In this document: in pieces, positions 13,702 through 55,229 of the stretch | Numbering within the stretch: the stretch's first letter is position 1 | Layout: every line of letters begins with the position of its first letter | DNA from: an uncultured Clostridia bacterium | GTDB lineage: Bacteria; Bacillota; Clostridia; UMGS1883 | Assembly (NCBI GenBank): GCA_947630975.1 | Contig: CANRJP010000001.1 | Coordinates: 18,712-82,711 of the forward strand | DNA: 64,000 nt | Direction of reading: 5' to 3' | The notes under the pieces: model-generated | Told to the model about the DNA's origin: nothing | The model's input: only the letters and a program-made list of their open reading frames with translations | Database searches by the model: none | Translations under genes and position numbers: made by a program

Positions 13702-13914
13702 TTAAAAATCTGACATATCTATGGATACATTGTTTACATGTATCATGCATCCACAATTATTACACCTGAAACAATTACAATGTGATAAATCCTTGCAATA
13801 CTCCGGAGCAACAAACACTCCATCATGACATTTATTACAAGATATTTTTTCTCCCGATTGAATTTTTTTCACAATTTCGAAAATGTCTTCCGAATCGCTA
13901 AAATTTTTTTCCAT
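13702..13914 (-). CDS. Cys-rich small protein, candidate immunity protein for the MuF toxin
   Basis: 70 aa with CxxC…CxC…CxxC motifs. Its start overlaps the end of the toxin gene (translational coupling). Confidence 0.4.
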   Translation of the reverse strand: MEKNFSDSEDIFEIVKKIQSGEKISCNKCHDGVFVAPEYCKDLSHCNCFRCNNCGCMIHVNNVSIDMSDF

Positions 13915-15361
13915 TAAAATAACCGCCCTTCTTCCATTGTAGTTCAGGATATGCCGCTTTCACACGTTTTATAATAAGCTTCTTCTCGGCAACCGTCAAT
14001 TCATTTCTGCCTTCATAGTGCATTTTTTCAGCTAAAAAACAATTTACCTCCGCCCATTGACAGTAACCCATATCGTATTTATGATGTGTAATTTCATGTA
14101 CAACAGCTTGCGCTGCATTCTTCTCATTTTTCGTGTTAGAAACAAAAATTTTTATAACATCGCCTTGTTGCACACCACGATTGGTATGAGGTTGCGGCTC
14201 ATAAATAAGCTGGGGTCTTATGCCGGTCTGTTGAATGTATTCCAGCGTCTCTCGTCCAATTGGCGTTGTTTCAAGATTATCAGCTATTTTCTGAGGGGTT
14301 ATTTCAACATTTTCGTCAATATTCTCATATTGGAAAATGTCTTCGGCTCTTGCATAATTTATTATATCACTTTTCCCCGATTTGTCAATAGGGAAATGCC
14401 GCCCCGTGGCCTTAAAAAACTCCTCGTCATTCATTAGTTTGTACTGGACGAAGCAGCGGCAGTTGATGTCCTGACTTGCCACGCCGCTTTTACCGGGGCA
14501 GTCGGCCATGCTACCGTCGGAGAGAGTGAACTGCTCATCGGCCAGCACCGTCACGCCCTCCATCATTTGATGGTCGGCCTTGCCGCCCACATAGGTTTTC
14601 CAGCCGTGCTTGGTCTTGACACGGTGATTGGGCCGGACGCGCTCGTCCTTCATGGTGCGCCATATCTTCACCATCCGCAAATCCGCGCCGCTCTCTCGCA
14701 GCCCCTCGTCCAGACGGGCCGCCGAATCGTACATACCGGCCTCCCGCACTCTGTGTGTCTCGGTGCGGGCTATCCTCACGGCCTTTTTGTAATCGCCCTC
14801 CACGCGGCCGGCGATCCGCCCGGCCATGGTCTCGATGCGGTCGCCGTTGGTCAGTCCGGTCATGATGTCCCGCTTTATATCATACACCACCTGACGGCGG
14901 TTCCGTTCCAGACGGGCGTTAAGCGTCAGACCGGCAATGGGATTTTCCACCGCCTGCTTTATCACCTCCGGCGTCACCGTGGGAACGCCTTTCAGCGCCC
15001 GCTTAAGCTCCGCCGTATCAGCGGCCCGTTCCACCGCCGCCGCCGTGTCCCTGTATGCCCGCTCGTAGGTCTCCGCCGCCAGCTCGGCGATGAGCTGCTT
15101 CGCCCGTGGGCTTACGCCGTCCAGCCGCCGCTGTATCTCCTCAAGAAATCCGGCGTAGCGGTTCTCCCGCATCAGGGCCTCGAAGGTCAGACGCCCGTCG
15201 ACGGCCATGTCGGCGTATTCCGTGCCAAGGAACATCTTAAGCTCCTTTATCAGCTCACGGTACAGCCGCCTCAGCTCTTTTTCCGCGCCCTGCTCCCGGT
15301 GCTCCGCTATGCGTCTGAGCTGCACCAGCGCCCGCTGAAGCTCCTTATCGTTAACGGCCAT
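13898..15361 (-). CDS. phage head morphogenesis protein, MuF/SPP1 gp7 family, fused to a C-terminal HExxH toxin-like domain (MuF polymorphic toxin)
   Basis: Residues ~1-299 carry MuF motifs (RIARTETHRV…DERVRPNHR…NCRCF) and the gene lies directly downstream of the portal. The C-terminal 173 aa are an extra domain containing HEITHH (HExxH). Confidence 0.7.
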   Translation of the reverse strand: MAVNDKELQRALVQLRRIAEHREQGAEKELRRLYRELIKELKMFLGTEYADMAVDGRLTFEALMRENRYAGFLEEIQRRLDGVSPRAKQLIAELAAETYERAYRDTAAAVERAADTAELKRALKGVPTVTPEVIKQAVENPIAGLTLNARLERNRRQVVYDIKRDIMTGLTNGDRIETMAGRIAGRVEGDYKKAVRIARTETHRVREAGMYDSAARLDEGLRESGADLRMVKIWRTMKDERVRPNHRVKTKHGWKTYVGGKADHQMMEGVTVLADEQFTLSDGSMADCPGKSGVASQDINCRCFVQYKLMNDEEFFKATGRHFPIDKSGKSDIINYARAEDIFQYENIDENVEITPQKIADNLETTPIGRETLEYIQQTGIRPQLIYEPQPHTNRGVQQGDVIKIFVSNTKNEKNAAQAVVHEITHHKYDMGYCQWAEVNCFLAEKMHYEGRNELTVAEKKLIIKRVKAAYPELQWKKGGYFNGKKF

Positions 15362-15367
15362 AACCTA

Positions 15368-16819
15368 TCACTCCAGACTGATTTCGCCCTCTTCCTCGCC
15401 GGTCCCGTCTGTCAGGGCGGGTATTCCTTCCGTCTCGGCCTCGGCCATTTCCAGCGCGTAGTCCACGTCGTCTATTTCCGGCACGGCTATGCCCCAGGCC
15501 AGAGACTTGGGCAGGCCCGCCGCCATGAGCGCCTGAGCCGCCTGAGCGTTGCTGAGTGTGTCCATGGGGAAGTTGCGTTTGAAGTCCATGGTTATCTGCA
15601 AGGGGTCAACCGCGATTTGCTTTAAAGTCCAGAAGCCCGCCAGCAGCCGCCACATATGGGTCGCCGCGTCCATCATCTTCGCCTGGAACATTCCGCACTT
15701 GGTTTCAAGGCCGTGAAGCTTGAATTTTAACGAGACGCCGCTGGCCGTGCCGAAGGTTTCGTCGCTGAGGTCCGGCGTCTTGCTGAAGCGGTAGATGTTC
15801 CCCTCGAGCCGGTCAAGCTGGTGCTCGGCAAAGCTGTCATTCACGTCCTTTGTCAGAAAGTATATCTTCCGCTCCGAGGTGGCTCCCGTGCCGGGAATGG
15901 AAAAGGCTCCGCTTCTGCGGGCCTCGTCGAGGGTTTCGTCGTCCGGACTTAAGCCCTGGAACACCATATAGGCGTGGGCGAAGCTCTCCACGTCGTTTAT
16001 GTTGTCGCTGAGCACCTTTTCGTAGGCGTCTATCTCGCTGAGAACCTTTTCCGCGTCCCCGATGCGCTCGTTGTTGTTTTCCACCGCCTGAAGGGGACAG
16101 CCGCCGAACAAGTGCATCCGGCTTTCAATCAGCTTCAGGTCGCCGAGCCCGCCCTCGTAGACGTGGTACATCTCGCTGTCGTAAAACTCGGCGTGCCAGG
16201 TCTTTGCCCCTCCGGCCAGCTCGGTATAATAATACCTTACGGCATATTCCGGCTCGGACAGGCGGGAGCTTGACAGGCTCACCGTCTCCCATGCCGGCAC
16301 CGGCATAACCCTCGCCTCGCCCTCGGGGTCAACATAGAACAGCCGCCCCGCGTATCCGGATATGGCGGCCATCTTCGTTATCTCCATGTCCACGCCGAAC
16401 ATATTGTTTCGCGTGACGAAATCGGTCACGGCTTTTGTAGCCCTGTCCACCGCCGCCGCTCCGCCGGTGACGGCCTCCGCCTCGGCGGTTCTGCTGTAAC
16501 CGTAGGCGATGGGCTTTCCGGCGAAATATCCCGTCTTGAAATCTACTATCTCGCCGACGAAATCGGTCTTGACCTTGTTGTTGATGGGGTCCGTCTCGTG
16601 GAACCGGGGCTCCCGCCCGTCGATGGGAGAGCTGCCGTCAAGGCCCATGTAACGGTTGTACATCTCGCGGCTGTATTTGGCGTTGAGCTTGTGCTTGCGG
16701 ATGATTTTTCCCAGCAGCGCCGGGGATATGGGCCCCCGGCCAAGCTCGCCCAGCTCCGCCTTTATCTCGGCCAGCTCCGCCGAATAATCAGGATATACGT
16801 TTGTTTTGTTTCTTCCCAT
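15368..16819 (-). CDS. phage portal protein, SPP1 gp6-like
   Basis: 483 aa, located between terminase large and the MuF protein. Length and sequence are consistent with SPP1-family portals. Confidence 0.8.
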   Translation of the reverse strand: MGRNKTNVYPDYSAELAEIKAELGELGRGPISPALLGKIIRKHKLNAKYSREMYNRYMGLDGSSPIDGREPRFHETDPINNKVKTDFVGEIVDFKTGYFAGKPIAYGYSRTAEAEAVTGGAAAVDRATKAVTDFVTRNNMFGVDMEITKMAAISGYAGRLFYVDPEGEARVMPVPAWETVSLSSSRLSEPEYAVRYYYTELAGGAKTWHAEFYDSEMYHVYEGGLGDLKLIESRMHLFGGCPLQAVENNNERIGDAEKVLSEIDAYEKVLSDNINDVESFAHAYMVFQGLSPDDETLDEARRSGAFSIPGTGATSERKIYFLTKDVNDSFAEHQLDRLEGNIYRFSKTPDLSDETFGTASGVSLKFKLHGLETKCGMFQAKMMDAATHMWRLLAGFWTLKQIAVDPLQITMDFKRNFPMDTLSNAQAAQALMAAGLPKSLAWGIAVPEIDDVDYALEMAEAETEGIPALTDGTGEEEGEISLE

Positions 16820-30906: not shown

Positions 30907-31125
30907 ATGAAACACAAATACAATATGTCCAGCAAGTCGGATATGCGTCGTTTTCAGCGGGATCTGAAAAAAGATATAAAAGCGTCGGTCGTATCAGCAA
31001 TAGAAAGCGGCCTATATGATGTAACTTGTCCGAATTGCGGGGCTGTTGTAAAAGTTCCGGCAGGAAAAAGCAAGTGTCCATCATGCCGGGGAGAGATAAA
31101 CTTAGAGCTCGATGTTGACCTTTAA
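30907..31125 (+). CDS. small zinc-ribbon protein
   Basis: 72 aa with CPNCG…CPSC. Own promoter (TGTGACA-17-TATACT) and RBS GGGAGG. Confidence 0.45.
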   Translation: MKHKYNMSSKSDMRRFQRDLKKDIKASVVSAIESGLYDVTCPNCGAVVKVPAGKSKCPSCRGEINLELDVDL

Positions 31126-31269
31126 ATTTATCTCATTGTCGTGGGTCAATTCCTTCAGGAGGGAGTTGACCTCTTTCAATTTTTCGCTTATGGCGGACAG
31201 CTTCGCAAAAAGCTCGTCCACTTGTCCAGTGTTGACCTTAACTGTCGCCGGAATATTGATCTTATCCAC
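31102..31269 (-). CDS. small coiled-coil protein (GTG start)
   Basis: RBS AAGGAGG-7-GTG. The 55-aa product is VDKINIPATVKVNTGQVDELFAKLSAISEKLKEVNSLLKELTHDNEINLKVNIEL. The longer track ORF (to 31611) overlaps the + strand gene and was rejected. Confidence 0.35.
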   Translation of the reverse strand: MDKINIPATVKVNTGQVDELFAKLSAISEKLKEVNSLLKELTHDNEINLKVNIEL

Positions 31270-31344
31270 CTCATCACCTCCTTGACACCATTTCCAATTA
31301 ATGCTATGATAAATTGTTGAAATACAAAAAGGGGAGTGATCTTC

Positions 31345-31710
31345 ATGCCGGAGCCAACCGCCATTGATTATAAGGTGCTCGGCTTCATCGGTAGTTCCGT
31401 ATCGGTGAGCCGCGCTCAGATTGACAAAAAATTTAAAAAATATTCGCCGTCCATAGACGCCCGCATAAGCTTTTTGTCTTATGATATGGGCTATATTGCC
31501 GAAGATACCACCCAACGGATAAGCGGCGCCGGTGATATAACCGTCACTCATCTCGGCATATATCGCATTACCGAGCCCGGCGTCCGTGCCCTTCAGGACT
31601 ATCGCCGGCAAAAGCGTGAAAACACCCGCCGTTTTTGGATTCCAGTTGCAATATCGATAATTGCCGTGATAATTTCCGCGTGTTCCCTGTATGTCGCTAT
31701 TTGCAAATAA
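31345..31710 (+). CDS. membrane-anchored protein (C-terminal TM)
   Basis: Promoter TTGACA-17-TATGAT (31280-31308), then RBS GGGGAG. The C-terminus FWIPVAISIIAVIISACSLYVAICK is a TM helix. Confidence 0.45.
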   Translation: MPEPTAIDYKVLGFIGSSVSVSRAQIDKKFKKYSPSIDARISFLSYDMGYIAEDTTQRISGAGDITVTHLGIYRITEPGVRALQDYRRQKRENTRRFWIPVAISIIAVIISACSLYVAICK

Positions 31711-31824
31711 TTACTATTGCAAGTGAAAGCATCGCCATCGCCATTGAAAAAATTGCGCTGTACAACGGCAAATTAGGGTGCCGTTCATAAATTGGCCTGT
31801 AATCCTTTTCCTTTTTCATGTCTT

Positions 31825-32004
31825 TCACCTCCGTCCTCCCAACAAAAGCTTTACCGCCTCAGTGGCGCAGGCCTTCAGCTCATCGTCTGTCGGTATGCGC
31901 CACTTTGTCTCGCAAAAGTATAACACCGCCAACGTGCTTATGTACCATTTCAGGCTTGTTATCGCCAAAATGGCTATAACAATGCCGAGTAAAATGTATA
32001 TCAC
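31825..32004 (-). CDS. small membrane protein (GTG start; N-terminal extension to 32097 possible)
   Basis: RBS GGGGAGG-7-GTG. Product is VIYILLGIVIAILAITSLKWYISTLAVLYFCET…. Confidence 0.35.
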   Translation of the reverse strand: MIYILLGIVIAILAITSLKWYISTLAVLYFCETKWRIPTDDELKACATEAVKLLLGGRR

Positions 32005-32071
32005 CTCATCACCTCCCCTCGGGCGCCGTGCGCGTTTCATGCGCTCACGGCCCGCGGCCGCCCCTTGCGCC

Positions 32072-32245
32072 TTACGATGCCTTTTCTGTTTGGTCAATGT
32101 CCATAGCCCTTAAACCCGCTCGAAGCAATTCCCTTATAATTTCCGAGTATGACGAGCGACAAAATCTGTCTGTTTTCCTAAGATTAACTATCGCCTGTTC
32201 CATATCGTCAGTCAGGGAAATGCTCATTCTTTTTGATTCGTTCAT
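32072..32245 (-). CDS. ribbon-helix-helix (CopG/Arc-like) transcriptional regulator
   Basis: MSISLTDDMEQAIVNLRKTDRF…SEIIRELLRAGL resembles an RHH fold. Divergent from the + strand RHH-like gene. Confidence 0.5.
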   Translation of the reverse strand: MNESKRMSISLTDDMEQAIVNLRKTDRFCRSSYSEIIRELLRAGLRAMDIDQTEKAS

Positions 32246-32266
32246 AAAATGCACCTCTTTTTGTTA

Positions 32267-32345
32267 TATTTTTCACCATTGGTGAACTCTTAATAATATA
32301 ATATCACACCAGTGGTGAAATTTTTCTTGACATTTTTGGTGAATT
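32267..32345. promoter_or_regulatory. divergent promoter/operator region with three TCACCA-N-TGGTGA-type palindromes
   Basis: tcaccattggtga, caccagtggtg and ggtgaattggtg, overlapping TTGACA (32327)-17-TATATT of the + strand gene. Confidence 0.45.
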
Positions 32346-32386
32346 GGTGTATATTGTATTTAGGAGAAAAAAAGGAGGCAAAAATA

Positions 32387-32695
32387 ATGGGAACAAATCG
32401 ACCCAGATTTTCCGTCACCATGTCAGAGGAAATGTATCAACAAATCAATGATTTTTGGCACAGCAATAAGTTTCCTACACAAACTAAAGCCATAACAAAA
32501 ATCCTTGAGCTTGGGATTGCGGCCTTAGATCAGGCCGGAGAGGAAGCAAAAAAAGAACCGCCAATCTTTGTCAAAGACGGCAGTATGGCAATGTATGAAG
32601 CTCTTGATGAAATTGACCGCGCGGAAATCCGCGGGGAAATGAAGCAAATGCTCAGGGCCGATAAATACCAGCAAGACAGCGCAAAAATGGCTTAG
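32387..32695 (+). CDS. ribbon-helix-helix-like regulator
   Basis: RBS AAAGGAGG. The N-terminus MGTNRPRFSVTMSEEMYQQINDFW is a beta-strand then helix (Arc/MetJ-like). Acidic C-terminus. Confidence 0.45.
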   Translation: MGTNRPRFSVTMSEEMYQQINDFWHSNKFPTQTKAITKILELGIAALDQAGEEAKKEPPIFVKDGSMAMYEALDEIDRAEIRGEMKQMLRADKYQQDSAKMA

Positions 32696-32762
32696 TTGTT
32701 AAAGATGGAATAATATATTTGAATAAAAATTAAAAATAATATACGACGAAAGGAGTTTCCAA

Positions 32763-33701
32763 ATGTCGGACATTGATCTTAACGATTTCATACCGCCTAA
32801 AACCATTCAGCCTTTTGAGGCAGAGCTTTCATACGGACAATTGCGTATGCTTCACTATCTGGCCCCGATTTGTGAAAAAGAGATTCATCTGCCAAATTAT
32901 TTAATGCCATATATAAATGACGCCTATAGCCTTGTTTCGCTCGGCTATCTTGGCGAAGCTGACGCGGCTGTTTTTCTAAAAAGAATAACCGTCCCGGAGC
33001 TGAAAGCTTTTCTTCAGGAGCACGGACAATCTGTTGCCGGTAAAAAAGATGTCCTGATACAGAGAGTTATTTCTTATATCAGCGCCGAAGAAATTGCGGC
33101 CCATTTCCAAATGAATAAGTACTACACTGTCACCCCCGAAGGACAGGCCATGATGGAACAATATCCGAGAGAAGTGGTGTATGACGCTGAAATGCGAAAA
33201 ATACTCATTCCGATACAAAGAAGAATGAACAAAAGTATTTTGGAGGAAAATAGAGATTTTGCGATGGCAGACATAAAATTTCTTGGCAAATATAAACAAT
33301 ACGATCTTCCTGTAAAAGCCCTTGTTTTGGCTTATAATCAAGTCGCTACTGCATGGGACTTTACGTCCAATCGACAGCGCGACAAAATGACGGATATGTT
33401 TTCCTTGCTTTATGACGTTTCCGTACCGAACAATGTATTTTATCAAGTTAAGCGGTATCTTCATGCCATGACGGAGTTAAAAAAGTTGCCGAAAGATACT
33501 TCATTCTTAACATATACTTATACTATTCAGACGATGGGAGACCAACGAACCTGTACGCATTGTCAATATATGCAAGGGAAAATGTTCAACCTTAGGGACG
33601 CTCAAATTGGCGTAAACTATCCGCCTTTTTATGATTGCAAAAGCGACTTTTGCCGTTGCTTCGTTAGGATAGGCTTTGATACAAAGGCGGTGATAAAATG
33701 A
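32763..33701 (+). CDS. SAP-domain protein with a C-terminal MuF (Phage_Mu_F)-like Cys motif
   Basis: SAP-like helix-turn-helix ITVPELKAFLQEHGQSVAGKKDVLIQRVISYI. C-terminal DQRTCTHCQYMQGKMFNL…NYPPFYDC…CRCF parallels the MuF tail motif D.RT…H…GK.F…PP.H.NCRC, also seen in the 13898-15361 MuF protein (…DINCRCFVQY). Confidence 0.45.
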   Translation: MSDIDLNDFIPPKTIQPFEAELSYGQLRMLHYLAPICEKEIHLPNYLMPYINDAYSLVSLGYLGEADAAVFLKRITVPELKAFLQEHGQSVAGKKDVLIQRVISYISAEEIAAHFQMNKYYTVTPEGQAMMEQYPREVVYDAEMRKILIPIQRRMNKSILEENRDFAMADIKFLGKYKQYDLPVKALVLAYNQVATAWDFTSNRQRDKMTDMFSLLYDVSVPNNVFYQVKRYLHAMTELKKLPKDTSFLTYTYTIQTMGDQRTCTHCQYMQGKMFNLRDAQIGVNYPPFYDCKSDFCRCFVRIGFDTKAVIK

Positions 33702-33898
33702 AATTTGGCATCCGTACCCCCTCGCTGAAAAAATCCCTGAAAGCCCGTACCACAGGGAAACTCAAGCGGTCAATAAAAAAATCCCTTCTCCCCGGATACG
33801 GAAAGAAGGGCGCCGGCTGGGTAAAAAACCCGAAGAAAGCGGCCTATAACAAAATCTATAATAAGACCTCAAAAAGCATTTTCGATTTATTTAAGTAA
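33698..33898 (+). CDS. highly basic small protein (Lys-rich), translationally coupled partner
   Basis: ATGA overlap with the upstream gene. 66 aa with ~30% Lys/Arg. Confidence 0.4.
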   Translation: MKFGIRTPSLKKSLKARTTGKLKRSIKKSLLPGYGKKGAGWVKNPKKAAYNKIYNKTSKSIFDLFK

Positions 33899-34042
33899 CA
33901 AAGAGGAATTTGACCATATTCGCATACTCGGTAAGGCCGTCACGTTTTTGAGTGATGTGCGATAGGGGGAGTGACACAAAAGCACTTGACAATTTAATAA
34001 CTTTTAAGTATAATATATATTGAGTGGGAGGGAATGATATAG

Positions 34043-34408
34043 ATGTACTCGGTAAAATTCTATAAAGACGCCGTCGGCAGAGAGCCGCTGCGGGAATATT
34101 TGGAAGAATTGGGAAAAAGGCAGGACAAAGACAGCCGTATTAATTTCACAAAAATAAGAGATTATATCAGAACCCTCAGCGAATACGGCACCGGAGCCGG
34201 AGCGCCTTATGTGAAGCACCTGACCGGCGATATTTGGGAGCTGCGGCCACTCAGAAACCGTATATTATTCTTCGGGTATGACGGCAGCAGCTTTATATTG
34301 TTATCCCATTTTATAAAGAAAACTCAAAAGACCCCGCGCCGGGAAATAGACAATGCTGAGAGACTGATGAAGGACTATATCGAAAGGAGCAAAGAACATG
34401 AAAGATGA
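34043..34408 (+). CDS. type II TA toxin, phage Gp49-like/HigB-like (RelE superfamily)
   Basis: MYSVKFYKD…REPLREYL…IWELRPLRNRILFF…HFIKKTQKTPRREIDNA matches the Gp49-like (DUF891) toxin pattern. Confidence 0.65.
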   Translation: MYSVKFYKDAVGREPLREYLEELGKRQDKDSRINFTKIRDYIRTLSEYGTGAGAPYVKHLTGDIWELRPLRNRILFFGYDGSSFILLSHFIKKTQKTPRREIDNAERLMKDYIERSKEHER

Positions 34409-34748
34409 AGAATACACTAAGGCAATAGATAAGGCAAAGGCCAATTTGGCCGACATTCGCGAGCGCGGATCGGCGGCGATTGGCAGTGATGCACTGGAGT
34501 TCATGGATTCTCTTTTAACCCCCGAGGAAATAGCGGAAAGCAATTTGCGGGTCGCTCTTATAGGTGAAATTATCAATGCCCGCACGGAAAAAGGTATCAG
34601 TCAAAAAAGGCTTGAGGAACTCAGCGGCGTGAAACAGCCTATCATAGCCCGCATGGAGCGCGGTGCGACAAGCCCCCAGCTCGACACTGTGCTCAAGGTT
34701 CTTGCCCCTCTTGGTAAAACTCTGGCCGTTGTTCCCTTGGAAGGGTGA
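34398..34748 (+). CDS. XRE-family HTH antitoxin (HigA-like)
   Basis: Overlaps the toxin stop. HTH is ISQKRLEELSGVKQPIIARMERG. Confidence 0.65.
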   Translation: MKDEEYTKAIDKAKANLADIRERGSAAIGSDALEFMDSLLTPEEIAESNLRVALIGEIINARTEKGISQKRLEELSGVKQPIIARMERGATSPQLDTVLKVLAPLGKTLAVVPLEG

Positions 34749-34754
34749 TGTCAC

Positions 34755-34916
34755 ATGAAAAAAGAGGGGTTTATCAAGCGCCTTGTCCTTGCATGGGACC
34801 CGGATTTCACAAAGGTGACCCCCGAGGAGGCGGCTCAAATCGATGCCGCCGAAAAAAGCGGATATATATTCGACGAGGATATAGACTGGGATAATCTGTC
34901 GAAGTATGCCGAATAA
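34755..34916 (+). CDS. 53-aa small protein
   Basis: Start context gggtgatgtcacATGAAAAAAG is nearly identical to that of the 35965 ORF. Confidence 0.35.
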   Translation: MKKEGFIKRLVLAWDPDFTKVTPEEAAQIDAAEKSGYIFDEDIDWDNLSKYAE

Positions 34917-34974
34917 AGTCTTTCACAGCGCTGTAAGGTAGGGGGAAAAACTCTTAAAAATTTAATATTGAACT

Positions 34975-35090
34975 ATTGACAATTCCGTTGCTTTGTGATA
35001 CACTAATGGTGAAAAGAGATTTTATATAGCCCAGTTCTCACCACCTGAATCGAAAGGCCCGGAGTTGCAGCTCCGGGCCTTTCTTTTGGG
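34975..35090 (+). ncRNA. candidate small RNA
   Basis: TTGACA-17-TACACT promoter (34975-35003). ~85-nt transcript ending in GGCCCGGAG-ttgca-GCTCCGGGCC followed by ttctttt. No ORF longer than 7 codons. Confidence 0.3.
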
Positions 35091-35328
35091 CTTCGTCGGC
35101 TACTTCTTTCCGTCAAGCCACTTGCAGATATAATATGTAATTATACCCGCCGCGACGGAAATGAAAAGAGAGACGTATTATAGCATATTTCCCCACATTT
35201 GTAAATAGCTTCGTAAAATAAAAATTGTGCACCTGTGTTGGCACCATACTCAGTGATGTGCGGCAAGGATAAATACGTATTGACAAAATACGTATAATAT
35301 GATATTATAATTAACGGAGGGCTGCGTA

Positions 35329-35520
35329 ATGCCGCTGAAATCAAAAGATATTGAGAAAATAATCCTTGATGACGGCTGGGTCTTCAAGTCACAAACCGGC
35401 TCGCACCGTCATTATACACACCCCACAAAGCCGGGCAAGGTAACAATACCTTTTCACGGCGGTGATATACCAAAAGGAACCGAGCTCTCTATCCTGAAAC
35501 AGGCTGGACTGAAAAAATAG
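35329..35520 (+). CDS. hicA: HicA toxin (mRNA interferase)
   Basis: …SQTGSHRHYTHP…VTIPFHGGDIPKGTELSILKQAGL is the HicA signature. Confidence 0.8.
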   Translation: MPLKSKDIEKIILDDGWVFKSQTGSHRHYTHPTKPGKVTIPFHGGDIPKGTELSILKQAGLKK

Positions 35521-35532
35521 GAGGTATTGAAA

Positions 35533-35952
35533 ATGTTATACGCATATCCGGCATGCTTTATCAAAGAAGACTGCGGTTATTCCGTTATTTTTCCTGATCT
35601 GAACGATTTGGCTACCTGCGGTCAAACTCTTGACGAAGCCCTTTTGATGGCCGTGGACTGTCTCGCCGGTCACCTGTATTATCTTAAGAAGTCCGGCGAA
35701 GCGCTTCCTCCGGCTTCACCTGTCGGCAAAATAGATGTCCACGGTATTTTAAGCGATCTTTCCCTTTCGTCAAACGAAGCGTTTGTGAACGTGATTACCG
35801 TTGATGTTGAGGAATACGCGAGAAAGCATTTTGAAAAATCCGTAAAAAAGACTCTCACCATTCCGGCGTGGCTCAATACCGCGGCAATGGAGCATAACGT
35901 TAATTTTTCCCAGGTTCTTCAGGATGCGCTTAAGGAACGGCTGCATGTGTGA
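35533..35952 (+). CDS. hicB: HicB antitoxin
   Basis: RBS AGGAGG-8-ATG. N-terminal HicB RNase-H-like fold, C-terminal RHH (TLTIPAWLNTAAMEHNVNFSQVLQDALKERL). Confidence 0.75.
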   Translation: MLYAYPACFIKEDCGYSVIFPDLNDLATCGQTLDEALLMAVDCLAGHLYYLKKSGEALPPASPVGKIDVHGILSDLSLSSNEAFVNVITVDVEEYARKHFEKSVKKTLTIPAWLNTAAMEHNVNFSQVLQDALKERLHV

Positions 35953-35964
35953 GGGTGATGTAAT

Positions 35965-36105
35965 ATGAAAAAAGCCGAATTAAAACAAGACGATACCGTT
36001 CGCATTAAAACCGACCTGACCGAAGAGGAAAAGGAGATTGTGAAGCGCGGACGTGAGGAGTACGCCAAAGGCGGTTTTGTCCCGCTGGACAGCGTTTCGC
36101 TGTAA
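35965..36105 (+). CDS. 46-aa small protein
   Basis: Start context gggtgatgtaatATGAAAAAAG matches that of the 34755 ORF. Confidence 0.35.
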   Translation: MKKAELKQDDTVRIKTDLTEEEKEIVKRGREEYAKGGFVPLDSVSL

Positions 36106-36269
36106 ATATTAGCAAAATAAAAAGGAGCCCCGGTGTTGGCGCACCGAAGCTCCGAGTGGTACATGATACAAAGAGGAGGATCACATACCAGAACCATATC
36201 TATTGTATCATGTACGCTCCGTTTTGTCAATATTTTTTCAATTTTTTCAACAAAAGGAGTGTATTTTTT

Positions 36270-37304
36270 ATGGCAAATGCAAAAAAATTGCCCAGTGGGA
36301 GCTGGAGCGTGAATATCTATATCGGCAAGGACAAGAACGGTAAGCGCAAGTACAAGCGTTTTACCGGCGCCGACAAGCGCAAGGTCGAGCGGGAGGCCGC
36401 CGCCTATGCCGATGAGCACCGTGGCGAGGTCAGCACCGACACCTTCGGCTATGCGGCGCGGCAGTATATTGAAAATCGAAAAAACATTCTTTCCCCGTCA
36501 ACGATATTAAATTACAACAGGATTTACAGGAACTACCTTCAGCAGTGGGAATGTGTCGCGATTTCAGATATTGGGTCAAAGGCAATCCAACAACTGGTAA
36601 ATAACAAGGCCACGGAGCTGTCGCCCAAAACGATCCGTAATATATACGGTTTTATTACGGCGGTCATTTATTCGGTCGATCCATACGCAAGAATAAAGGT
36701 TGCTCTGCCGGCGCCGGTTAAGACATTTCGGGAACTGCCGCCGCCCAAAGATGTCATTAAGGCGGTCATTGGGACCAAGTGCGAGCTTCCGGCACTTCTC
36801 GCCCTCTGGGAAAGTCTGAGGATGTCGGAAATTCGCGGGTTAAGGTTCGGTGATCTGGCAGGCAATATCATAACCGTGCGCAACGTAAAGGTAAAGGGCG
36901 AAGATGGCGACGTCCTCAAGAGCCGTACAAAGAATTATGACAGCACTCGGCGGCTGGCTTTGCCCCAATATATAATGGACCTTATCCCGAGGGATAAGGA
37001 GCCTACTGATTTTATAGTGCCGTATAGTGCCCGCCGTATATATGGTTGGTTTCAGGACGCGCTTGACGCTGCCAGACTGCCGCACATGAGTTTCCACGAT
37101 CTCCGGCATATGTACGCGTCTATTGCGCTAAGTATCGGCATACCGGACAAATATGCGATGGAGAGCGGCGGGTGGCGAAGCCCTCATGTTTTAAAGGGAG
37201 TGTACCAAGAAACTTTCAGCGCCGAGCGCCAAGCCGCCGACGCGAAAATGAACAATCATATTTACACCTTGATAGATATTGCCCGGCGTGAAAATGCAAC
37301 ATGA
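36270..37304 (+). CDS. int: tyrosine recombinase/phage integrase
   Basis: C-terminal …LRFGDL…HDLRHMYASIALSIGIPDKYAMESGGW… contains the R…HxxR…Y catalytic signature. Start at MANAKK after RBS AAAAGGAG. Confidence 0.85.
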   Translation: MANAKKLPSGSWSVNIYIGKDKNGKRKYKRFTGADKRKVEREAAAYADEHRGEVSTDTFGYAARQYIENRKNILSPSTILNYNRIYRNYLQQWECVAISDIGSKAIQQLVNNKATELSPKTIRNIYGFITAVIYSVDPYARIKVALPAPVKTFRELPPPKDVIKAVIGTKCELPALLALWESLRMSEIRGLRFGDLAGNIITVRNVKVKGEDGDVLKSRTKNYDSTRRLALPQYIMDLIPRDKEPTDFIVPYSARRIYGWFQDALDAARLPHMSFHDLRHMYASIALSIGIPDKYAMESGGWRSPHVLKGVYQETFSAERQAADAKMNNHIYTLIDIARRENAT

Positions 37305-37390
37305 ATATGCAACACGGGAAAATAAAACCGCTTGACTGTCGGCATTTTACCGCATTAGTTATATGTTCAAGTCCCGTCACTCCGACCATA

Positions 37391-37425
37391 AATGGCTTAA
37401 AACCTATGTTTTAAGCCATTTTTTA
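37391..37425 (+). terminator. rho-independent terminator after int
   Basis: aatggcttaaaa-cctatg-ttttaagccatt followed by ttttatttaa. Confidence 0.5.
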
Positions 37426-37440
37426 TTTAATTCAAATAAT

Positions 37441-37710
37441 TCAAAATTCATAATGCGTCCACATACTGACAATTTTAACCGTTTTATTTTCATCGTCAAC
37501 CTGATACACGAGCCTGTGCTGTAAATTTATTCGCCGCGAAAACGCGCCGATCAAATCACCGGTCAGCTTTTCATAAGGCGGCGGCGTCCTGTATGGATTT
37601 TCGCGCAGTATGTCAATAAGCTTCCTGACTTTGTCATCCAGATGCGCGGCCTTCAGCCTCGGAATGGATTTTAACGACGTCTTTGTATAAAATATTTTGT
37701 ACATCACCAC
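37441..37710 (-). CDS. yoeB: YoeB/Txe-family toxin
   Basis: …RINLQHRLVYQVDDENKTVKIVSMWTHYE is the YoeB signature. Confidence 0.8.
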   Translation of the reverse strand: MVMYKIFYTKTSLKSIPRLKAAHLDDKVRKLIDILRENPYRTPPPYEKLTGDLIGAFSRRINLQHRLVYQVDDENKTVKIVSMWTHYEF

Positions 37711-37952
37711 TCAACCGCGCTTTCCTCAACGCACTCCTCAAGCGGCGTATTAATGCCTTCGACAATTTCATCTTTTACTTTTTGATTGCGCGATAAATAC
37801 AGAGTTTCCATAAGTCCGTTATAGTCCGACTCGCTGATAATAATGGCATTTCCCGCCTTAGTGTTAACGTTTATTACATCGTTAAATTCCACAGCCTGAT
37901 TAATATAGTCAAACAGATTTTTTCTGAGATTGGTTATATTTATATTGGTCAT
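37704..37952 (-). CDS. yefM: YefM/Phd-family antitoxin
   Basis: MTNINITNLRKNLFDYINQ…IIISESDYNGLMETLYL. Start ATG follows RBS GGAGGTGG (the track ORF begins at an upstream GTG). Overlaps yoeB. Confidence 0.8.
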   Translation of the reverse strand: MTNINITNLRKNLFDYINQAVEFNDVINVNTKAGNAIIISESDYNGLMETLYLSRNQKVKDEIVEGINTPLEECVEESAVEW

Positions 37953-37968
37953 ATTCTCCACCTCCAGT

Positions 37969-38004
37969 ATCGTTATATGTACATTATAACGTACATATAA
38001 CGAT
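37969..38004. promoter_or_regulatory. 14-bp perfect inverted repeat operator upstream of yefM
   Basis: atcgttatatgtac-attataac-gtacatataacgat, located 17 bp upstream of the yefM start codon. Confidence 0.5.
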
Positions 38005-55050: not shown

Positions 55051-55126
55051 GCCGGCGTAGCTCAGTTGGTAGAGCAGCTGATTTGTAATCAGCAGGTCGT
55101 AGGTTCGAGTCCTATTGCCGGCTCCA
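55051..55126 (+). tRNA. tRNA-Thr (anticodon TGT)
   Basis: Cloverleaf: acceptor gccggcg/tgccggc, D-arm gctcagttggtagagc, anticodon stem gctga/tcagc with loop ttTGTaa, T-arm gtaggttcgagtcctat, and encoded CCA. Confidence 0.85.
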
Positions 55127-55144
55127 CTTTACTTAACTTAATAT

Positions 55145-55229
55145 GGAGGAGTTCCCGAGCGGCCAAAGGGGGCAGACTGTAAATCTGTTGTCACTGACTT
55201 CGGTGGTCCGAATCCACCCTCCTCCACCA
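55145..55229 (+). tRNA. tRNA-Tyr (anticodon GTA), class II with long variable arm
   Basis: Acceptor ggaggag/ctcctcc, anticodon loop ctGTAaa, long variable arm tgtcactgacttcggtggt, T-arm ggtgg-tccgaat-ccacc, and encoded CCA. Confidence 0.85.

Follow-up and report, generated by a model that had tools for sequence, protein, structure and literature searches.

MuF proteins have been described as head components of the virions of portal-terminase phages, encoded among the late genes (PMC3482391, PMC5576092, PMC5512222, PMC9503650). In the virion MuF is a portal-associated module (PMC5512222, PMC3482391), and it also serves to target fused effectors and toxins to the head (PMC5512222, PMC9503650). 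Here we describe a MuF copy that lies outside this published description. It is found at positions 32763-33701 (+ strand) of a 64,000-nucleotide stretch from an uncultured Clostridia bacterium (assembly GCA_947630975.1, contig CANRJP010000001.1, positions 18,712 to 82,711; the whole stretch is referred to as the window), where a lysogeny operon encodes a 312-amino-acid (aa) protein with a MuF core fused to a predicted DNA-binding half that contains a SAP motif. The protein and its relatives, which we call SAP-MuF, make up a recognisable and apparently uncharacterised family with an unexpected genomic placement. As an earlier, sequence-only reading of the window had supposed, no published role of a MuF domain in a lysogeny setting came to light.

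SAP-MuF and canonical MuF (SPP1 gp7; PF04233, TIGR01641) share a homologous core domain. Unlike canonical MuF, SAP-MuF is mostly encoded in lysogeny operons and not beside portal and terminase, is an additional copy, has an N-terminal SAP half, and conserves four cysteines, against two in the canonical MuFs sampled; the window protein itself falls just under both curated cut-offs. The MuF polymorphic toxins (Jamet et al. 2017, PMC5576092) are likewise MuF proteins of temperate Firmicute phages with a small open reading frame (ORF) after them, but they are encoded in the head module and have MuF at the N-terminus and the toxin at the C-terminus, whereas SAP-MuF has MuF at its extreme C-terminus and no toxin domain: the core ends within ~10 residues of the stop codon and no toxin extension follows it. 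The small ORF after SAP-MuF may not be a cognate immunity gene like those of the MuF toxins; it is a member of a ubiquitous family found mostly without any MuF gene. The toxin class is resembled instead by the prophage's own canonical MuF (487 aa, 13898-15361, - strand; PF04233 46.5 bits over the full profile), which, with its C-terminal DUF6782 extension, is built in domain content like the MuF polymorphic toxins or effectors. DUF6782 is a putative metallopeptidase, here with an HEITHH motif.

Two further systems invite comparison. Lactococcal Sie2009 and SieF7/2AB occupy the slot between repressor and integrase (PMC7693887), as does the window gene, and some SAP-MuF relatives or partners are membrane-anchored. 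However, the Sie proteins are small, have a hydrophobic N-terminus and reside in the membrane; the window protein, at 312 aa, is soluble and predicted to bind DNA, and no sequence relationship between SAP-MuF and the lactococcal Sie proteins was detected. TERi (TerI) of a Listeria prophage is made in lysogens and blocks DNA packaging by invading phages (10.1101/2025.02.27.640495). It is a conceptual analogue only – an unrelated small protein that targets terminase, with no mimicry of a head protein – and it comes with dedicated self-immunity genes, of which none were identified at the SAP-MuF locus.

Domains and predicted structure of the 312-aa protein

The 312-aa protein is an extra, non-structural MuF paralogue: it combines a MuF core that bears a four-cysteine motif with a SAP/winged-helix-like half, and its gene lies in the lysogeny block. 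This was among the options that the sequence-only reading had left side by side, and it is borne out by the canonical MuF gene that stands next to the portal of the same prophage. The protein was modelled confidently by AlphaFold2 with the family alignment (predicted local distance difference test, pLDDT, 92.7; predicted template-modelling score, pTM, 0.85).

A SAP motif near the N-terminus had been proposed, and it scores above its threshold: PF02037 matches residues 73-106 (32979-33080, + strand) with 32 bits against a cut-off of 23.9 (E 9.4e-8), and the two SAP helices (residues 77-86 and 95-105) are modelled with pLDDT above 95. Winged-helix-like elements flank the motif within an N-terminal half of approximately residues 20-135 (32820-33167, + strand). 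Profile matches to the SAP region include SIZ1, Ku70, MKL1 and Tho1, while Foldseek matches include the SAP structures of Tho1 and Hcc-1; with FAN1, SIZ1, Ku70 and Tho1 the window protein shares the helix-extended-helix DNA-binding module. Among solved structures the best Foldseek match is FAN1, a SAP-containing nuclease (probability 0.97), along with isolated SAP domains; TM-scores are low (~0.27), the likeness is confined to the DNA-binding region, and SAP-MuF, unlike FAN1, has no nuclease domain. From the SAP signature and the FAN1-like features the N-terminal half is predicted to bind double-stranded DNA.

Of the C-terminus the earlier reading had claimed only a tail motif resembling that of MuF proteins, and had suggested profile-profile comparison; the homology exceeds that claim. 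Single-sequence scores are borderline: Phage_Mu_F (PF04233) gives E 2.9e-6 and 28.4 bits, just under the cut-off of 29.6, with the match spanning profile positions 64-111 only, and TIGR01641 (SPP1 gp7), likewise matched in its C-terminal half only, scores 34.4 bits where 39.65 is the cut-off. Canonical MuFs for comparison were taken from viral contigs retrieved through the shared C-terminal pattern, 61 of 80 of these loci adjoining an SPP1-type portal. When the SAP-MuF family was aligned by hhalign to 28 non-redundant portal-adjacent MuFs, the match reached 99.4% probability (E 9e-22, 116 columns) over residues 180-310. On this comparison the protein carries the whole MuF core, beyond the tail motif: three helices followed by a C-terminal beta/cysteine module (33300-33692, + strand). 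The two sets share the motif D.(R/K)T..C...G...GVN.PPF....CR. Among predicted viral structures (BFVD) the best matches are phage proteins labelled 'SAP domain' and then many MuF minor capsid proteins, one of which, a 191-aa MuF, aligns over 133 columns at 4.1 Å. A sequence search for a solved MuF-domain structure returned none, the solved relatives being eukaryotic SAP domains only. An ADP-ribosyltransferase-like fold, which had been named as a comparison to make, receives no support from structural similarity in the C-terminal region.

The prophage's genuine MuF had been said to carry the same tail motif. It does have D.R.R..H and NCRC but is without the PP.H element, and BLASTP between SAP-MuF and this protein is non-significant (E 0.1).

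In the window the two MuF genes are well separated. Canonical MuF adjoins an SPP1-type portal (15368-16819; Pfam SPP1_portal); the SAP-MuF gene lies ~16 kb from the portal and ~17 kb from canonical MuF, on the other strand. The setting first read from the letters – on the + strand, among toxin-antitoxin modules and regulators, far from the structural genes – is thus upheld by domain searches: a Gp49/helix-turn-helix (HTH) pair, a HicA/HicB pair and a tyrosine integrase follow downstream, the last of these (36156-37304, + strand; Pfam Phage_integrase) ending the lysogeny block. The gene is coupled to that of a small basic protein (33698-33898, + strand) as originally read, the TGA stop of SAP-MuF and the ATG start of the 66-aa gene overlapping as ATGA at 33698-33701.

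The family and its four cysteines

An exhaustive phmmer search (E up to 1e-3) returned 265 relatives, of which the best 150 were listed and many are full-length proteins, and SAP is combined with the MuF C-terminal module in 122 of 161 relatives examined: by these sequence criteria SAP-MuF is a real protein family. In an alignment of 30 relatives, 27 match SAP and 24 match Phage_Mu_F (best E 2e-14). Three relatives (P0273, P0253 and P0277) score 48-63 bits on PF04233, above the cut-off, and coverage of the profile is wider than in the window protein (positions 13-111 for P0277 and 7-108 for the protein at locus L129). Residues invariant among the 30 include K95 in the SAP domain and C264, C267, G283, P287, P288, C297 and C299.

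The cysteines form a motif, CxxC...CxC (C264, C267, C297 and C299; 33552-33659, + strand), whose codons were verified in the sequence. Across the 122 SAP-MuF proteins they are kept in 121, 122, 122 and 121 cases, respectively. The 28 canonical MuFs – a sample biased to one motif subtype – have Ser at 264 and Thr at 299, leaving two of the four cysteines. The difference suggests that SAP-MuF has acquired a putative zinc site.

Some members have N-terminal transmembrane (TM) helices or a hydrophobic stretch (judged from the sequences and a crude scan). In the same crude scan no TM segment was seen in the window protein. Another N-terminal module swap is seen in P0128 (712 aa), in which a TerB_N domain (E 1.5e-16) precedes the SAP-MuF unit. 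Tblastn of SAP-MuF against ~50,000 phage genomes gave no match; a genome scan with a narrow alignment found two loci, and a metagenome scan three.

Genomic placement across lineages

In approximately 12 independent lineages the gene for SAP-MuF, or for a MuF core, lies between a repressor or ImmA gene and an integrase or recombinase. The order shared by all close and moderately related lineages that could be placed is repressor and/or ImmA-type protease, SAP-MuF, small variable gene and integrase/recombinase (P0002, P0277, P0273, P0124 and P0149). The P0206 gene adjoins a MrpR-type repressor domain, and the gene at L167/L168 adjoins a serine recombinase. SAP-less variants place a MuF core at the same lysogeny position (L129 and L199, where it is joined to a further domain described below; L076, L178-L181 and L183). 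The genes downstream of SAP-MuF vary, and often encode membrane proteins: the 66-aa protein, a DUF4236-TM-domain X protein, an 83-aa zinc-ribbon/TM protein, bPH_1 and a zinc-ribbon protein.

Four lineages are exceptions, with the gene in the tail module. At L173/L174 and L175/L176 it directly follows the tape-measure gene inside the tail operon; at L177 it likewise comes after the tape-measure gene, but on the opposite strand; at L163 it follows the baseplate hub. We considered whether SAP-MuF might be the only MuF of such phages, and rejected this: in both tail-module phages whose loci could be extended, canonical MuF still follows the portal. In every phage checked (the window's prophage and these two) SAP-MuF is therefore an extra copy beside canonical MuF. 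For comparison, 122 of 160 viral loci retrieved with C-terminal patterns encode a protein with the C-terminal module, no SAP and a portal next to it.

Co-evolution of SAP-MuF with the resident canonical MuF was also considered and was not seen. In a set of 157 proteins the window protein matches 156 other MuF-type proteins (best canonical E ~1e-9 to 1e-10), the window's own MuF being the sole non-match; for the two tail-module phages, the resident MuF comes 12th-13th in rank.

The closest relative, P0002, is 83% identical to the window protein. Upstream of the P0002 gene (L001-L003, 382-1731), in the slot held in the window by a repressor-like gene, its prophage encodes a SNIPE/T5orf172 nuclease-like protein of 449 aa together with a small protein that has a TM2 domain. 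A second near relative, P0003 (L004/L005, 6001-6966), is 85-87% identical to the window protein over its first ~143 residues, SAP included, and then continues into an unrelated coiled-coil C-terminus. Its gene stands at the same place, behind a CI/S24 repressor gene, and the second gene downstream of it is a 66-aa gene. As far as can be read from sequence, P0003 is evidence of domain swapping at the SAP-MuF locus.

The 66-aa basic protein

The small protein had been described as ~30% Lys/Arg, which is accurate: 17 K and 3 R make up 20 of its 66 residues (30.3%), and its pI is 10.9. It has no Pfam match but matches PHROGs 10934, 3374, 29766 and 4721 over residues 1-66 (E about 3e-31 to 3e-25). 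Its family comprises 1,829 clusters at E up to 1e-3, with ~80% identity among the 120 listed, most members being exactly 66 aa long, and 29 columns are invariant in 38 aligned members. The gene is found in 97 sequenced phage genomes. Carriers include Lactococcus phages TPW22 (orf3) and Dub35A (orf4), Streptococcus phage SM1 (gp2), Enterococcus phage phiEf11 (gene 33) and pneumococcal prophages; in the last, the matching gene carries the annotation 'HIRAN domain protein'. In the four phages examined (TPW22, SM1, phiEf11 and Dub35A) it stands between the repressor/ImmA genes and the integrase. It also stands alone in chromosomes and at the ends of unrelated gene clusters. The protein is among the most conserved unannotated genes of Firmicute lysogeny modules, including those of the model phages SM1, phiEf11 and TPW22.

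If the 66-aa gene and SAP-MuF formed a co-conserved operon, as had been proposed, the pair should recur. It does so in the closest lineage alone (P0002); elsewhere SAP-MuF is followed by other genes. Among 44 viral loci with the 66-aa module none has SAP-MuF within 5 kb, and the 97 phages gave no SAP-MuF match. The upstream neighbour of the 66-aa gene is on the same strand and tightly spaced in 49 of 64 loci, and these neighbours fall into at least 26 unrelated clusters (ImmA-like proteins with HExxH, CI/S24 repressors, lipoprotein-like proteins and others). A dedicated two-gene module was accordingly rejected. Because the 66-aa gene mostly occurs without SAP-MuF, the two genes are largely not co-conserved, a conclusion softened only by a link through fused domains (domain X, below).

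Longer variants of the family have the 66-aa module at the N-terminus, then a low-complexity linker and at least one TM segment (loci L026, L040, L043, L044 and L049; phage matches H12, H14 and H27). This arrangement suggests that the 66-aa protein is probably a cytoplasmic, membrane-proximal basic module. Its own structure model is of low confidence (pLDDT 65). Dub35A orf4, whose product is 71% identical to the window protein's 66-aa partner, has been cloned alone or with orf5, and the phage sensitivity of L. lactis was unchanged (Ruiz-Cruz et al., PMC7693887). A search of PADLOC-DB 2.0 with both proteins matched no model at E up to 1.

Domain X

A helical domain with the motifs NP[ED]T.ISR...L and LKT[ED][KR]G, which we call domain X and which matches no named Pfam family, connects the two families. 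It was located at L073 (3808-4653), in P0129 (residues 60-177), and at L037 (5001-5939), L129 (5209-6141) and L199 (5332-6312). In three SAP-MuF proteins (P0129, P0154 and P0253) it extends the N-terminus. Two other proteins end in it: a DUF4236-TM protein encoded directly after SAP-MuF P0124 (48% identity to P0129, E 3e-36), and a 312-aa variant within the 66-aa family (E 2e-12 and 9e-7). In L129 and L199 it is joined straight to the MuF core. Judged by these fusions the SAP-MuF and 66-aa families share a network of fused domains, and the adjacency in the window is itself no dedicated pairing.

Possible functions

We tentatively propose, as the best supported of the readings considered though a possible rather than a probable one, that SAP-MuF is a MuF mimic, made in the lysogen and tethered to DNA, that interferes with superinfecting phages. 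The protein would probably be made in the lysogen rather than late in infection, because its gene lies in the lysogeny block. Tethered to DNA, it would vie with a superinfecting phage's MuF for contacts with the portal or with DNA ends, or would be incorporated in its stead; head assembly, packaging or DNA delivery by the invader would then be spoiled, so that a mimic of a structural protein would bring about superinfection interference. The 66-aa gene would be co-transcribed with SAP-MuF as an independent and very common component of lysogeny modules, loosely connected to it via domain X.

Several observations are consistent with this mimicry: the ~12 lineages with the gene in the slot between repressor and integrase, where the lactococcal Sie genes are also found; the repressor-like gene upstream in the window; the AT-rich cassette, resembling an acquired moron (41% G+C content, GC, against 50-62% in adjoining prophage DNA); the likeness of SAP-MuF to foreign MuFs (best canonical E ~1e-9 to 1e-10) and not to the resident one; the presence of canonical MuF as well; the N-terminal TM helices of some members; and the membrane-protein partners. 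TERi offers, by analogy, a precedent for a prophage protein that sabotages the packaging of invaders.

Other points weigh against it. Expression of the window gene in the lysogen is read from position only. The copies in tail operons, co-oriented and tightly packed with their neighbours (except at L177, on the opposite strand), mean that expression in the lysogen is not universal. SPP1 gp7 associates with the portal, and it is from gp7 that portal binding by the SAP-MuF core would be extrapolated. The window protein has no TM segment in the crude scan, SAP-MuF has no counterpart in PADLOC, and the Dub35A homologue of the neighbouring 66-aa protein gives no phage resistance in L. lactis.

SAP-MuF might instead be an accessory of lysogeny control: bound to DNA, it would assist the repressor or integrase in an architectural or regulatory capacity, for example in a nucleoprotein complex or by tethering prophage DNA, with the MuF core as a zinc-stabilised interaction module. 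Steady same-strand adjacency to repressor/ImmA and integrase/recombinase genes, the strong signature of double-stranded DNA binding (SAP and FAN1-like features) and the retention of the SAP half at the same locus in P0003, where a coiled coil replaces the MuF part, all fit such a role. We nevertheless think it unlikely: the gene is missing from most temperate phages (no match in ~50,000 phage genomes) and so is no core lysogeny function, the tail-module copies fit it poorly, and the SAP-less variants retain the MuF core at the same position, which suggests that it is the MuF part whose function has been conserved. Those copies in tail modules favour a different explanation, namely cargo delivered by the virion, in which the MuF core loads the protein into the capsid and the SAP half enters the next host together with the DNA, where it might, for instance, protect the incoming genome or position it. 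MuF is a known head-targeting module for fused effectors (PMC5512222, PMC9503650), and in four lineages the gene sits in tail or late operons directly after the tape-measure gene or baseplate hub; yet the window and ~11 other lineages have it in the lysogeny block, the window gene is opposite in strand to the late genes (so that late transcription is antisense to it, as the map reads), the cargo would be N-terminal where described MuF fusions have a C-terminal effector (PMC5576092, PMC9503650), and the phages checked already possess canonical MuF. Capsid cargo seems to us improbable for these reasons.

We give similarly little credence to an abortive-infection pair, in which the MuF core would act as a sensor for the portal or procapsid of an invader, while the product of the variable gene that follows (in the window, the 66-aa protein) would serve as effector and halt the cell. 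In favour of such a pair, defence systems commonly respond to structural proteins of phages; the genes after SAP-MuF are tightly coupled to it, differ between lineages and encode small or membrane-associated products; and domain X ties SAP-MuF to the 66-aa module and to DUF4236 proteins. Against such a pair, the 66-aa gene is found mostly without SAP-MuF – beside ImmA genes, repressors or lipoproteins, or alone in chromosomes – while its Dub35A homologue gave no resistance, with no toxicity reported, and neither protein matches PADLOC.

Returning to mimicry of a structural protein, its most general form is that SAP-MuFs are a previously unrecognised class of superinfection-interference factors. 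Each would have a zinc-stabilised core tethered to DNA or, in some variants, to the membrane and would poison the portal, MuF or DNA-end interactions of invaders, leaving unharmed the resident prophage with its diverged MuF; the 66-aa module and domain X would be further parts of this membrane-proximal network. So stated the hypothesis is doubtful. Were the mimicry true, it would be a new and easily testable mechanism of prophage immunity in gut Firmicutes, and a handle on what the MuF domain binds. More broadly, a conserved second MuF copy with a DNA-binding module, in an operon that a dormant prophage would keep active, suggests that phages reuse structural parts as weapons or regulators.

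Neighbouring genes

Upstream of SAP-MuF is a small repressor-like gene of ~103 codons (32384-32695, + strand), whose product matches PHROG 4738 ('transcriptional repressor', E 4e-5, residues 4-48) and has no match in a Pfam search. It is probably the first gene of the SAP-MuF operon. A candidate sigma-70-like promoter (TTGACA-17-TATATT, 32327-32355, + strand; 11 of 12 in a consensus scan, a pattern match only) lies upstream of the three + strand genes, and the same kind of scan found no promoter-like site in the 67-nucleotide gap that precedes SAP-MuF. The order repressor-like gene then SAP-MuF recurs on independent contigs (L160-L162). A small gene on the - strand (32072-32254) is divergent from the repressor-like gene, and the N-termini of both look ribbon-helix-helix-like by eye; together the two may form a local genetic switch over the SAP-MuF cassette.

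No convincing candidate for an intrinsic terminator was found downstream of the 66-aa gene. The Gp49 (HigB-like) and HTH pair that follows (34043-34748, + strand; Pfam) has its own perfect consensus promoter at 33986-34014 in the promoter scan. Genes for tRNA-Thr(TGT) and tRNA-Tyr(GTA) are found at 55051-55229 (+ strand); lying ~18 kb past the integrase, they are not the attachment site of the prophage. With the HicA/HicB pair (35329-35952, + strand; Pfam), the block at 31000-38000 holds two toxin-antitoxin-like pairs. The whole of this + strand lysogeny/moron block has a GC of 41-49%, compared with 50-62% in the flanking prophage and host DNA.

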